Shown piece by piece: positions 8,950-30,206 of a DNA stretch of 64,000 bases. The stretch is from contig OZ024745.1 of the NCBI GenBank assembly GCA_964016885.1, forward strand, positions 124,434,001 to 124,498,000. Direction: 5' to 3'. The translations under genes were made by a program, and so were the position numbers. The DNA comes from Eledone cirrhosa (taxonomy: Eukaryota). The number at the start of each line of letters is the position of its first letter. Within the stretch, counting starts at the first letter, position 1. Below the pieces are notes generated by a model. The model worked only from the letters and a program-made list of their open reading frames with translations. It ran no database searches and was not told where the DNA came from.

Positions 8950-9661
8950 TCATGGTTTTTGATTTAGGCACAAGGTTGGAGGGAAAAGCTAACCACGGTG
9001 GGATTTGAACTCTGAACGTAAAGACCAGCAAAATAATGGTTTTTGATTTAGACACAAGGCCAACAATTTTTTTGGTGGGTGGAGAAAATCGATTAAATCG
9101 ACCCCAGTGTGTGACTTACTTTATTTTATAGAGCTCGTAAGGAGGAAAGGCTAAGCTAACCTCGGCGGGATTTGAACTCAGAATGTATAAATCAGCAAAA
9201 TAATGGTTTCTCATATAGGCACAAGGCCAACAATTTTTTGCGAGAGAAAAGTCGATGAAATTGACTCCAGTGCGTGACTGGCGCTTTATTTTATCGACCC
9301 CGTAAGGATGAATGGCAAAGTTAATCTCGGCAGGATTTGAACTCAGAACGTAAAAAGCAGCAAAATAGTGAGAATGATTCACACATAACTCACCATTTGA
9401 AACTATGACTAAGCTATCTTTAAAAAAATAATGATTTCTAGTATAGGCACAAGGCTAGTAATTATGGGGGACGGAAAAGTCGATTAAATTGACACCAGTG
9501 TGTGACTGGTGCTTTATTTTATCGACCCCGTAAGGATGAAAGGCAAAGCTAGCCTCGGCGGGATTTGAACTCAGATGTAAAAAGCAGCAAAATAGTGAGA
9601 ATGATTCACACATAACTCCCCCATTTGAAACTATGTCTAAGCTATCTTTAAAAAAATAATG
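8950..9661 (-). mobile_element. Tandem cluster of 5'-truncated Meta-SINE copies with a duplicated unique flank
   Basis: Four gggatttgaactc B-box blocks each followed by cagcaaaa; about 9270-9432 is repeated at 9510-9661. Confidence 0.8.
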
Positions 9662-9734
9662 AAAACTCTAATCACAAGAGAATATGTACACTAGCACACT
9701 GCTCCATTAGTTACGCTGACAGATAGCGTTGATC

Positions 9735-18712: not shown

Positions 18713-19276
18713 GGTGGTGGATTGGCAGTATTGGTAGAGGGTTGGACGCCATGCTTTCCAACATAGTTACGTCCCTTTATGATCTGAGTTCAAATCCCGC
18801 CGAGGTTGACGTTGCCTTTCATCCTTACGGGGTCGATAAAATAAAGTACCAGTAATGCACTGGGTAATTGCTGGACTTGTGCCTAAAGTAGAAACAATTA
18901 TTAGTAAACAGTATCGGTAGAGGGTCGGACGCCATGCTTTCCAGCATAGTTACGTCCCTTTACGATCTGAGTTCAAATCCCGCCGAGGTTGACTTTGCCT
19001 TTCATCCTTACGGGGTCGATAAAATAAAGTACCAGTAATGCACTGGGTTATTGCTGGCCTTGTGCCTAAAGTAGAAACAATTATTAGTAAACAGTATCGG
19101 TAGAGGGTCGGACGCCATGCTTTGACGCATAGAGTTACGGCCCTTGCTATACTGAGTTCAAATCCTGCCGAGGTTAACTTTGCCATTCATCCTTACGGGG
19201 TCGATAAAATAAAGTACCAGTAATGCACTGGGGATTTGCTGGCCTTGTGCCAAAAGTATAAACAATTATTAGTAAA
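18713..19276 (+). mobile_element. Tandem trimer of Meta-domain SINE
   Basis: Three ~180-bp units joined by attattagtaaacagtat; attattagtaaa also flanks both ends (18695-18706, 19265-19276). Confidence 0.9.
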
Positions 19277-26048: not shown

Positions 26049-26190
26049 TTCACACTCCTCCTTAATCAAGTGACCTCACCACCATCTCTCCTCCCCATCC
26101 ACCACTATATACTTGATACATTAGATAAGATGCCCCACCACCACCCTCAACTACCAACTGAGACATAACCAGAACTGACCAACTTTATCT

Positions 26191-26242
26191 GACATTCCTG
26201 ATGATTTCATAAGAATGAAACAGTTCTAGTCCTGTAGAAGTC
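26191..26242 (+). ncRNA. Complete type I hammerhead ribozyme
   Basis: gacattc-CTGATGA-t-ttc-ataa-gaa-t-GAAACAG-ttctagtc-CTGTA-gaagtc. All three stems pair, predicted cleavage is after 26236, and (TA)n follows. Confidence 0.85.
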
Positions 26243-26430: not shown

Positions 26431-26970
26431 TATATATATACATACACACATATATATATACATATATAACATTAAATTAAACAACAGTTCTTCAACAATT
26501 GTAAGAAATTCCAACGTAGAATTAACTATCTCCATTATGTTGGAGCTAGTTCAATCGAATCTACTCTTTAATTTAAGCTGATGGCATTTAGAAAATCTCA
26601 GAAATCAATATCATTCCCTATATTGACCACTATAATATAAAAGGTAAAGGTATTTTAAAATTCGTAGTTTGTATATGATTCATTCACCAAACAATGTTAG
26701 TGATTTACCAAAAGCAATATACCACCAGATTACTCAAGTGACATATATTAAACAGAGACCTTTATCTGATACACCGATCAGTCCCAAACGTCGCACCAAC
26801 CTTTGAAAATGTAATGAATAGAAATTGAACTAGAACAATTGAACGAAAGAATTGGTAACGAAACCAAATAGATAACACTATAATTATAATACTGAAATGC
26901 AAAACACCCCAAAATGGGTATATATATATATATATATATATATATACGGTATATATATATATATATATAT

Positions 26971-27933
26971 GAACATAGACATAGAATATTCGAAAATATT
27001 CTGTATGTTTATAATAAACATTTTGAAGACCTAATCGCTATAGAATAGAATACGTCACGTATCACAATTAGATTCTCGATAAAAGCAAGGGAAGTAATCT
27101 ACGCGTTTCATTCTCGTTAGAAATCATCAGGACTACATATCCAGTGCTTTTATCGAGAATGACACAGCCAGAGACTTATAGAATACTTAGCTGTGTACAG
27201 GAACTGGTTTGAAAGAGCGGTTGCCGGTCCGGCAGAAATTAGAAATTGGAATAAATGCTCTGAAATAGCGATATATATGTGAACATAGACATAGAATATT
27301 CGAAAATATTCTGTATGTTTATAATAAACATTTTGAAGACCTAATCGCTATAGAATAGAATACGTCACGTATCACAATTAGATTCTCGATAAAAGCAAGG
27401 GAAGTAATCTACGCGTTTCATTCTCGTTAGAAATCATCAGGACTACATATCCAGTGCTTTTATCGAGAATGACACAGCCAGAGACTTATAGAATACTTAG
27501 CTGTGTACAGGAACTGGTTTGAAAGAGCGGTTGCCGGTCCGGCAGAAATTAGAAATTGGAATAAATGCTCTGAAATAGCGATATATATGTGAACATAGAC
27601 ATAGAATATTCGAAAATATTCTGTATGTTTATAATAAACATTTTGAAGACCTAATCGCTATAGAATAGAATACGTCACGTATCACAATTAGATTCTCGAT
27701 AAAAGCAAGGGAAGTAATCTACGCGTTTCATTCTCGTTAGAAATCATCAGGACTACATATCCAGTGCTTTTATCGAGAATGACACAGCCAGAGACTTATA
27801 GAATACTTAGCTGTGTACAGGAACTGGTTTGAAAGAGCGGTTGCCGGTCCGGCAGAAATTAGAAATTGGAATAAATGCTCTGAAATAGCGATATATATGT
27901 GAACATAGACATAGAATATTCGAAAATATTCTG
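26971..27933 (-). mobile_element. Left arm of hammerhead tandem array (about 3.1 x 310 bp; retrozyme-like)
   Basis: gaacatagac recurs at 26971, 27281, 27591 and 27901; minus-strand hammerheads at 27094-27136, 27404-27446 and 27714-27756. Confidence 0.92.
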
Positions 27934-29166
27934 CCGGACCGGCAACCGCTCTTTCAAACCAGTTCCTGTACACAGCTAAGTATTCTATAAGTCTCTGGCT
28001 GTGTCATTCTCGATAAAAGCACTGGATATGTAGTCCTGATGATTTCTAACGAGAATGAAACGCGTAGATTACTTCCCTTGCTTTTATCGAGAATCTAATT
28101 GTGATACGTGACGTATTCTATTCTATAGCGATTAGGTCTTCAAAATGTTTATTATAAACATACAGAATATTTTCGAATATTCTATGTCTATGTTCACATA
28201 TATATCGCTATTTCAGAGCATTTATTCCAATTTCTAATTTCTGCCGGACCGGCAACCGCTCTTTCAAACCAGTTCCTGTACACAGCTAAGTATTCTATAA
28301 GTCTCTGGCTGTGTCATTCTCGATAAAAGCACTGGATATGTAGTCCTGATGATTTCTAACGAGAATGAAACGCGTAGATTACTTCCCTTGCTTTTATCGA
28401 GAATCTAATTGTGATACGTGACGTATTCTATTCTATAGCGATTAGGTCTTCAAAATGTTTATTATAAACATACAGAATATTTTCGAATATTCTATGTCTA
28501 TGTTCACATATATATCGCTATTTCAGAGCATTTATTCCAATTTCTAATTTCTGCCGGACCGGCAACCGCTCTTTCAAACCAGTTCCTGTACACAGCTAAG
28601 TATTCTATAAGTCTCTGGCTGTGTCATTCTCGATAAAAGCACTGGATATGTAGTCCTGATGATTTCTAACGAGAATGAAACGCGTAGATTACTTCCCTTG
28701 CTTTTATCGAGAATCTAATTGTGATACGTGACGTATTCTATTCTATAGCGATTAGGTCTTCAAAATGTTTATTATAAACATACAGAATATTTTCGAATAT
28801 TCTATGTCTATGTTCACATATATATCGCTATTTCAGAGCATTTATTCCAATTTCTAATTTCTGCCGGACCGGCAACCGCTCTTTCAAACCAGTTCCTGTA
28901 CACAGCTAAGTATTCTATAAGTCTCTGGCTGTGTCATTCTCGATAAAAGCACTGGATATGTAGTCCTGATGATTTCTAACGAGAATGAAACGCGTAGATT
29001 ACTTCCCTTGCTTTTATCGAGAATCTAATTGTGATACGTGACGTATTCTATTCTATAGCGATTAGGTCTTCAAAATGTTTATTATAAACATACAGAATAT
29101 TTTCGAATATTCTATGTCTATGTTCACATATATATCGCTATTTCAGAGCATTTATTCCAATTTCTA
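27929..29166 (+). mobile_element. Right arm of hammerhead tandem array (about 4 x 310 bp; retrozyme-like)
   Basis: ctgccggacc recurs at 27931, 28241, 28551 and 28861; reverse complement of the left-arm unit; ends in (TA)n. Confidence 0.92.
28030..28072 (+). ncRNA. Type I hammerhead ribozyme of the 310-bp unit (also 28340-28382, 28650-28692, 28960-29002)
   Basis: gtagtc-CTGATGA-t-ttct-aacg-agaa-t-GAAAC-GC-GTA-gattac. Stem I extends through an internal loop into the 16-bp helix attctcgataaaagca/tgcttttatcgagaat. Confidence 0.92.
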
Positions 29167-29193
29167 TATATATATATACATATATATATATAC

Positions 29194-29225
<32 letters not shown>

Positions 29226-30206
29226 GTATGAATGCCTATGAGATAGTTTAAACGTTTATACGTCCATAATAAATAAAGACCAACTTACTTGGAAGCCAAT
29301 CAAGGGAATAATGAATGAGGGATATCTCGTATGAGATAGATAGGGAGAGAGATAGGCAGATAGCATGGTGTTTACCATTATATATATATATGAAATGTGG
29401 AAAACTTAATGTAATTATGTTATCGCATACAATTTCTTATACCAGAATATCGACAAAACATTGACTAACAAACGCTGAACTAGAAACAAAAGTAACACAA
29501 ATATAAAAACAAAAGAGAATGGGGAATATTAACGATTCTTAAAGTCTAAAGATGAATATGGTGAACACGATAATATAAAGGTGGAAATAACTAAAGTATT
29601 AAAATCGATACATCTTTGTATGTAACAACAAAATTACAATTACTCTCCAGGGATGAACTAGGACGTTAAAGAAACGTAAATATGGCTATTAAGGACTTAA
29701 TGGAAATAGAAAGTGACATTATCAGCACGATATTAAAAGGATTAGTTACAAACGAAACTAAATATTTCTTAGATCTTTCATTCATAGCGGATACTAAAAC
29801 AACTCAGCCCTTTTCCAGCACACCAACTACTGGTCAACATCTGTCTTTGTTTCGAACACACTGTGTCTGGGATATATTGCCCAGTATGTCCTCCGCTTAT
29901 TTGCTACAAAGTAATTGGGTCAGATGAAGTTTAGTGTTTTGCTTTCAGCAAATAACACGCAGTTATAATGCAGTATAAATTGTTTTTTCAAGTTAGAGGG
30001 AGATATGCAATCTTCTTCAGGATCGACGGAGGTCTAACACATCAAGTCAGAGTGGTAGGGGTGTAGTCATGTTTGTGGTACTCAGGGCCTATGAGAATTA
30101 GTTCCAGCCAGTATTTTGTTCTGGGGCTCAAGAGCTAAGAAGGCCCCACAGCAACCCTGCAACATCCATTTTGAGAAAAATCTTTACGTATTTCGGCTCC
30201 AAAATA

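Follow-up and report, generated by a model that had tools for sequence, protein, structure and literature searches.

The window, a stretch of 64,000 nucleotides of the Eledone cirrhosa genome, contains a 2.2-kb inverted array of a 310-nt unit with a (TA)n run on each side (Table 1). The phases of the unit are numbered from position 27929, which is phase 1. The left arm reads from phase 235 at its inner end (27933) to phase 268 at its outer end (26970), and the right arm reads from phase 1 (27929) to phase 308 (29166). The left outer end is of type A and the right outer end of type B, as defined below. The 5′ ends of the arms meet in the centre, and the 3′ ends point toward the target. Neither arm differs from the unit (100% identity), and the sequence that they share at the junction is exactly TTCTG, beyond which neither extends. 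An overlap of 5 nt or more is expected at 0.8% of random phase pairs of the unit. The 5-nt microhomology junction of two head-to-head arms described in the initial annotation is real. The centre without a mirror partner, put there at about 50–60 nt, measures 71 nt, and the quoted left-arm sequence has one T too many. The small GC hairpin lies at this junction by chance.

Other repeats are found in the window. A piece of another short repeat family with TA flanks lies at 26187–26239; elsewhere, copies of this family have a related hammerhead core. Tandem arrays of SINE-like units are located at 8985–9662 (165/228-nt units) and 18726–19276 (183-nt units).

Table 1. Features of the inverted array (window positions; phases refer to the 310-nt unit)
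Feature	Position	Strand	Remarks
(TA)n target, left flank	26919–26969	none	
Left arm, 3.11 unit copies, 964 nt	26970–27933	−	hammerhead sense on − strand
Left-arm hammerhead motifs	27714–27756, 27404–27446, 27094–27136	−	
Stretch without mirror partner, tightest register, 71 nt	27858–27928	none	
8-bp tetraloop hairpin, phase 236–255	27913–27932	−	~13 nt upstream of end A in each unit
5-nt microhomology TTCTG, common to both arms	27929–27933	none	head-to-head junction
Right arm, 3.99 unit copies, 1238 nt	27929–29166	+	hammerhead sense on + strand
Small GC hairpin	27932–27944	+	just 3′ of end B in unit
Three locus-private A>G changes (phases 69, 175, 264)	27997, 28103, 28192	+	in every copy of both arms
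Hammerhead motif, right arm	28030–28072	+	stem I, CUGAUGA, stem II, GAAA, palindromic CGCG stem III; predicted cut after 28066
Further right-arm hammerhead motifs	28340–28382, 28650–28692, 28960–29002	+	
One-sided 40-nt 'tail', phase 269–308	29127–29166	+	right end only
(TA)n target, right flank	29167–29229	none	

The unit and its hammerhead

The tandem unit is 310 nt long with 35.5% GC. The longest Met-started frame in a concatemer of the unit is 30 aa, and there is no protein-coding frame. Phases 102–144 form what we take to be a type I hammerhead, with stem I, CUGAUGA, a 4-pair stem II, GAAA and a palindromic CGCG cap. The cut is predicted after phase 138. Among 88 locus units, the CUGANGA core is variable only at N, the stretch of GAAA and the cut site is intact in 87, and the stem I variants preserve pairing; this natural variation supports a functional hammerhead. 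With so short a stem III, a dimeric hammerhead fold is expected. Rfam gave no ribozyme match in the window, only AT-rich chance matches; in a sister copy (locus L124), it gave a weak HH9 match (E 0.041), which is below the gathering threshold. One-base insertions next to the cut site were considered as ligation scars and not adopted; they are common to several loci and lie within stem I.

Non-LTR retrozymes are tandem units of ~170–400 nt with GC below 50%. The 310-nt unit resembles those of metazoans (Cervera and de la Pena 2020, PMC7229834; Li, Clavereau and Pollet 2026, bioRxiv 10.64898/2026.07.22.740005) in being tandem and non-coding, with one type I hammerhead each, and the one-pair stem III with its palindromic tetraloop resembles axolotl HHR_Amex1 (PMC7229834). 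Judged by its sequence, the 310-nt family is a non-LTR retrozyme. Its copies are dispersed, as expected of a mobile retrozyme: one 25-mer of the unit has 16,488 exact matches in the 3.0-Gb genome, which puts the family at no fewer than 16,488 units, and at least 1,322 exact A ends occur genome-wide in loci spread over many contigs. Mirror-image insertions of the unit number over a thousand.

At least half of the unit's words are present in each of the runs X1–X20, which carry many organism codes. The full unit in run X2, under another organism code, is a single 340-nt contig without flank; carry-over is therefore likely, and we take it as no evidence of spread.

Loci compared

The parsed loci are the window, 24 loci found by similarity, the first 60 A ends of contig 1, 18 B ends for which no A partner was listed, two more picked by position, and 13 extensions and extra loci. 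They are a small part of the at least 1,322 A ends. Each locus was aligned to the circular unit, using the locus's own unit where one existed. Left out of the counts are L086 (a duplicate of the L085 junction), L136 (which belongs to the array of L102), the second occurrence of the duplicated L061 junction and a nested cluster on contig C14 (L055–L060). In L061, a 173-nt block containing the junction (1943–2115) is duplicated, giving the same joint twice. The C14 cluster (G000:C14:25.02–25.32 Mb) consists of decayed nested unit pieces re-amplified inside a tandem repeat of ~6 kb. L102 and L136 (G000:C1:97461150–97476800) form one arm of ~14 kb and 45 copies, in which variant patterns recur 27 copies apart. 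Two arms are present in 49 of the 59 loci picked by an A end; the other 10 are single-armed.

Outer ends, tail and target

The last base before the TA run clusters at two places in the unit, A at phase 267–269 and B at phase 301–308, with a spacing of ~35–40 nt. Both ends were seen in 84 two-armed loci (75 from the parse and nine more read); 17 of the 84 had been picked by a B end for which no A partner was listed. All 84 are head-to-head with one A and one B, in the order A–B in 52, as in the window, and B–A in 32; neither A–A nor B–B occurs. The one-sided tail corresponds to the sequence between A and B, with one end of each type in 84 of 84 loci. According to the flank listing, the insertion target is (TA)n, in which a target-site duplication is invisible. 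At L140 (G000:C1:35891000–35894800), the insertion lies outside (TA)n and has a 15-nt duplication, the sole clear target-site duplication seen.

The 8-bp hairpin upstream of A is paired in 48 of 48 cells over six related sequences, two pairs having changed on both sides. Because it is kept with compensatory changes in the sister families, it likely matters for priming rather than for the joint, and it likely serves the reverse transcriptase as part of its recognition signal instead of marking breakpoints. In a 322-nt sister family, a different ribozyme segment is combined with the same A/B region and the same two ends (by eye, 30 loci). The sister families L213/L214, L142, L179, L194 and L197 likewise share the hairpin and the A/B region and differ in their ribozyme segments. 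Such swapped segments suggest a modular build.

Junctions

Junction phases are distinct in all 81 two-armed loci and are spread over the unit (chi-square p 0.07). Junction positions thus vary among copies, a point on which the reading in the initial annotation depended, and a single fixed junction for the family is ruled out. Seventy joints are clean, with overlaps of 0 nt (15 joints), 1 nt (18), 2 nt (15), 3 nt (8), 4 nt (7), 5 nt (4), and 7, 8 and 16 nt (one each). The mean overlap is 2.2 nt against 0.76 nt by chance. At least 1 nt is shared in 55 of the 70, at least 2 nt in 37 (12.8 expected), at least 3 nt in 22 (4.7 expected, p 5e-10) and at least 4 nt in 14 (1.5 expected). The enrichment persists in the 57 position-picked loci alone. 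Microhomologies of 2–6 nt, as had been anticipated, are therefore enriched (37 of the 70 clean joints reach 2 nt), but the typical overlap is 0–5 nt, and 11 of the 81 joints have insertions. These are 4–25 nt long and, by eye, mostly copies of nearby unit sequence. One insert-bearing joint (L124:1099–1370; G000:C1:45281598–45281869) has instead 272 nt of another repeat. The captured sequence is GC-rich and has many copies of 96–98% identity clustered on contig C25.

Both breakpoints in the window had been said to abut small hairpins. The two hairpins are present, but they have no role in breakage: over the 81 loci, 24 of 162 breakpoints lie in or beside hairpins against 24.6 expected, which rules them out as breakpoint signals. 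Run-off of a linear monomer at the ribozyme cut is likewise ruled out. It would give a pile-up of inner ends at the cut site, where three of 162 are found and 3.7 are expected.

No record among the 25 listed contigs of the public runs X5–X8 bridges the window junction, which rests on the assembly for this reason; the joint may be absent from that sample or simply lie among the 236 pieces outside the listing. The contigs of run X5 contain both flanks and eight head-to-head joints (depth 3–40, overlaps 0–5 nt), and one of the eight matches the junction of assembly locus L038 exactly. Fold-back chimeric reads, arising in the library or in assembly, would produce arms that are 100% identical, and a junction that the listed contigs do not bridge would fit such an origin. 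They would not produce fixed A and B ends in (TA)n, locus-private variants and 81 distinct joints, and the eight joints in contigs of a public run also speak against them. We regard an artefact as barely credible.

Arm lengths

The identical, head-to-head arms would also be obtained if one cDNA folded back on itself by microhomology, was copied outward and stopped at the other type of end. Such self-priming has been proposed for Penelope, in a model derived from palindromes (PMC3846280). A variant confined to one copy is mirrored between the arms of L108, as the model would have it. The folded-back strand, however, cannot exceed the arm that it copies. Of 75 loci, 40 have the longer arm on the A side and 34 on the B side; the lengths exclude a B-first fold-back in 42, an A-first fold-back in 50 and both orders in 17. 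The lengths of the A and B arms are only weakly correlated (rho 0.29, p 0.013), which counts against the reading that we prefer below. Symmetric centres (within 15 nt) are not in excess, with five in 81 loci against 8.1 expected, and folding back gives no cause for the strict pairing of A with B. For the 310-nt family, snap-back is largely refuted, and we hold it to be very improbable. The arm lengths and the lack of excess symmetry support the earlier proposal of twin priming joined by microhomology over a simple snap-back.

L191 and L184, which contain GIY-YIG frames, have near-symmetric centres with loops of 8 nt and 26 nt. Both are young head-to-head inversions with one-sided tails (L191:3260–6525 and L184:1989–5737); the tail of L191 is ~40 nt. 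Their centres are as self-priming predicts and argue against full generality of a mechanism other than snap-back. Symmetric centres would also result, with self-priming playing no part, if two enzymes reached the shared 5′ end of a linear RNA and ran off there; we infer this from the two cases.

A probable single template and A>G marks

An identical full unit is found in both arms in 49 of 52 loci, whereas two different loci share their main unit with a probability of 0.069. In 14 loci, the main unit common to both arms occurs in no other sampled locus. Three of the 52 have no full unit common to both arms.

Octopuses are a group with strong A-to-I editing. Of 43 sites with a substitution fixed throughout a locus, 32 show A>G and three T>C when read on the hammerhead strand. 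Differences in single copies are balanced (16 A>G, 19 T>C and 18 G>A). Two hyper-edited loci contribute 24 of the 32 A>G sites; without them, there are 11 A>G and three T>C. The neighbour pattern of the A>G sites is not that of clean ADAR, as 5′ G is not depleted. The window has three such changes (Table 1), and at these phases most of the depth in the run X5 contigs is A. In L046, 14 A>G changes are present in every one of the five full copies of both arms, and in L040 the catalytic GAAA is GGGG in all five hammerheads, again in both arms. As the core is dead in both arms of L040, editing likely took place after self-cleavage, on the monomer. The fixed patterns are most simply accounted for by one edited monomer that was read many times, and the A>G marks lend indirect support to an RNA origin of the arrays.

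Some loci do not agree with a single monomer circle. L108 has a variant in the outermost copy only of both arms, and variants are mixed in L076, L127, L043, L041 and L038 and in the long arrays L102+L136, L072 and L124. Multimer templates, template switches or later exchange therefore also occur.

The initial annotation had two independently primed cDNAs. They appear to be primed separately, but they are not independent, since they start at two fixed, different sites (A and B in 84 of 84 loci) and come from the same RNA variant (49 of 52). If each end of the target instead took up its own RNA, as in the dual priming proposed for L1 (PMC2837659, in the part consulted), a protein complex could set the A/B asymmetry and a small number of RNA variants per germ cell could make the arms alike. 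Arms that differ in part (L127 and L043) and the three loci with no common full unit are in keeping with two RNAs. The 14 loci whose shared main unit is seen nowhere else in the sample, including L046 with its 14-site pattern, are not, and nor is the dead hammerhead common to both arms of L040, as identical hyper-editing of two molecules would be rare. We find a separate RNA for each end quite improbable.

Alternatively, twin priming may have taken place on a linear multimeric transcript, with unequal crossover, and not rolling, increasing the copy number afterwards. In L108, both starts could lie in one copy of a multimer, a later duplication would account for variants that recur at distances of 7, 21 and 27 copies in long arrays, and local amplification is favoured in the Discussion of bioRxiv 10.64898/2026.07.22.740005. 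The copies of a multimer would be edited differently, yet a hyper-edited pattern is repeated in every copy of either arm. L040 weakens the multimer reading only in part, since transcription of a parent array whose core is already dead could also yield a multimer. On balance, a linear multimer is unlikely.

A candidate driver protein

The unit itself has no ORF for reverse transcriptase or GIY-YIG, which an autonomous Penelope-like element would encode, and we infer a Penelope-like partner. GIY-YIG matches in the genome give 10,597 candidates, of which 150 were scored. Eight of 10 long frames scanned had hits both to reverse transcriptase and to a C-terminal GIY-YIG domain. Among 45 loci compared out of the 10,597 candidates, no ORF with both domains was tied to the unit or to the A/B region, which counts against the reading that we prefer below. 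A Penelope-like protein of a lizard (PMC11167929) can cut both strands and extend each of them; its two start sites on the RNA lie on either side of the tail, and a dimeric form is predicted. A point against our reading is that its start site does not differ between the strands in vitro.

Discussion

Our preferred reading, which we consider probable, is that a Penelope-like protein inserts the 310-nt unit by twin priming on one edited RNA circle, which is rolled round before the products are end-joined. It is likely that a single circular RNA was copied at either side of the chromosome cut and that the two sides were joined afterwards. A parent array would be transcribed, its hammerheads would cut the RNA to monomers, and these would become circles, some of them with A-to-I editing. 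Both strands of the target would be cut by a GIY-YIG nuclease that may act as a dimer; insertion is into (TA)n. Sites A (~268–270) and B (~302–308), at which the arms have their fixed ends, would be the two start points of reverse transcription. Each enzyme would then roll round the same circle. The arms pass the cut site, contain up to tens of copies and have one shared variant. The 3′ ends of the two cDNAs may anneal, each being extended on the other to give the second strand. The inner ends lie at scattered phases and are joined by overlaps of 0–5 nt or by short, locally templated inserts.

In the part of PMC2837659 consulted, twin priming of L1 uses two target-primed cDNAs from both cut strands and leaves an internal junction, often with microhomology; the 310-nt family is alike in all of these. 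For L1, it is a variant route; one start is at the poly(A), the other at an internal site that varies, and the inverted pieces do not overlap. In the 310-nt family, most loci show this outcome (49 of 59), both cDNAs start at fixed internal sites, and one sequence recurs many times along the arms; there is no poly(A), and each arm in the window covers the whole unit several times. The insertion works like twin priming but is not the L1 case.

Penelope-like elements that bear an endonuclease have an inverted 5′-truncated copy, a one-sided tail of 30–40 bp and a bias to (TA)n, according to the parts consulted of PMC8557442, PMC3846280 and PMC11167929. The 310-nt insertions share with them the head-to-head form, a tail at one end only, a microsatellite target and two internal starts ~35 nt apart. 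They differ in that the unit has no ORF, both arms are arrays of many copies, and the centres are off-register and not palindromic. The inversion of Penelope was attributed to self-priming in 2013 (PMC3846280), was left unresolved in 2021 (PMC8557442) and is not addressed in the 2024 paper (PMC11167929), each as far as consulted.

Twin priming is a probable answer to the inverted structures of Penelope-type elements. It is quite possible, although we stop short of favouring it, that twin priming is the normal integration of such elements. A dimer would start two cDNAs 35–40 nt apart on one RNA, and joining of their 3′ ends would replace second-strand priming. On circular retrozyme RNA, both would go on rolling to a random stop; the joints would then lie off-centre, and the arrays would preserve the A-to-I pattern of one molecule. 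On linear RNA, both would run off at the one 5′ end and leave the palindromic centres that were formerly taken for self-priming.

The hypothesis that circular RNA is converted to tandem cDNA by a Penelope-like reverse transcriptase is stated in the Discussion of PMC7229834, and bioRxiv 10.64898/2026.07.22.740005 leans to local amplification by unequal crossover; both papers were compared in part. The compared parts contain no description of head-to-head arrays, fixed paired ends, microhomology at the junction, (TA)n targeting or editing marks fixed within arrays, as seen in the 310-nt family. The retrozyme class, the head-to-head form and the tail were known already; the mechanistic evidence is new. 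In the literature searched, no report was found of strict two-end pairing, of twin priming of Penelope-like or retrozyme insertions, or of array-fixed editing marks; older Penelope reviews may discuss two-end priming.

The origin of tandem and inverted Penelope-like insertions is named as an open task in the part of PMC8557442 consulted. The 310-nt family is young and has more than 1,000 insertions, and the models can be told apart by each of four features: the pairing of the ends, the lengths of the arms, the overlap at the junctions and the editing marks. These countable tests bear on that task and on the rolling-circle hypothesis of PMC7229834. With its conserved hairpin and two start sites, the compact 310-nt template is suited to an in vitro assay. 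The mechanism proposed here would be a route by which ~5 Mb of satellite-like DNA arose through retrotransposition.
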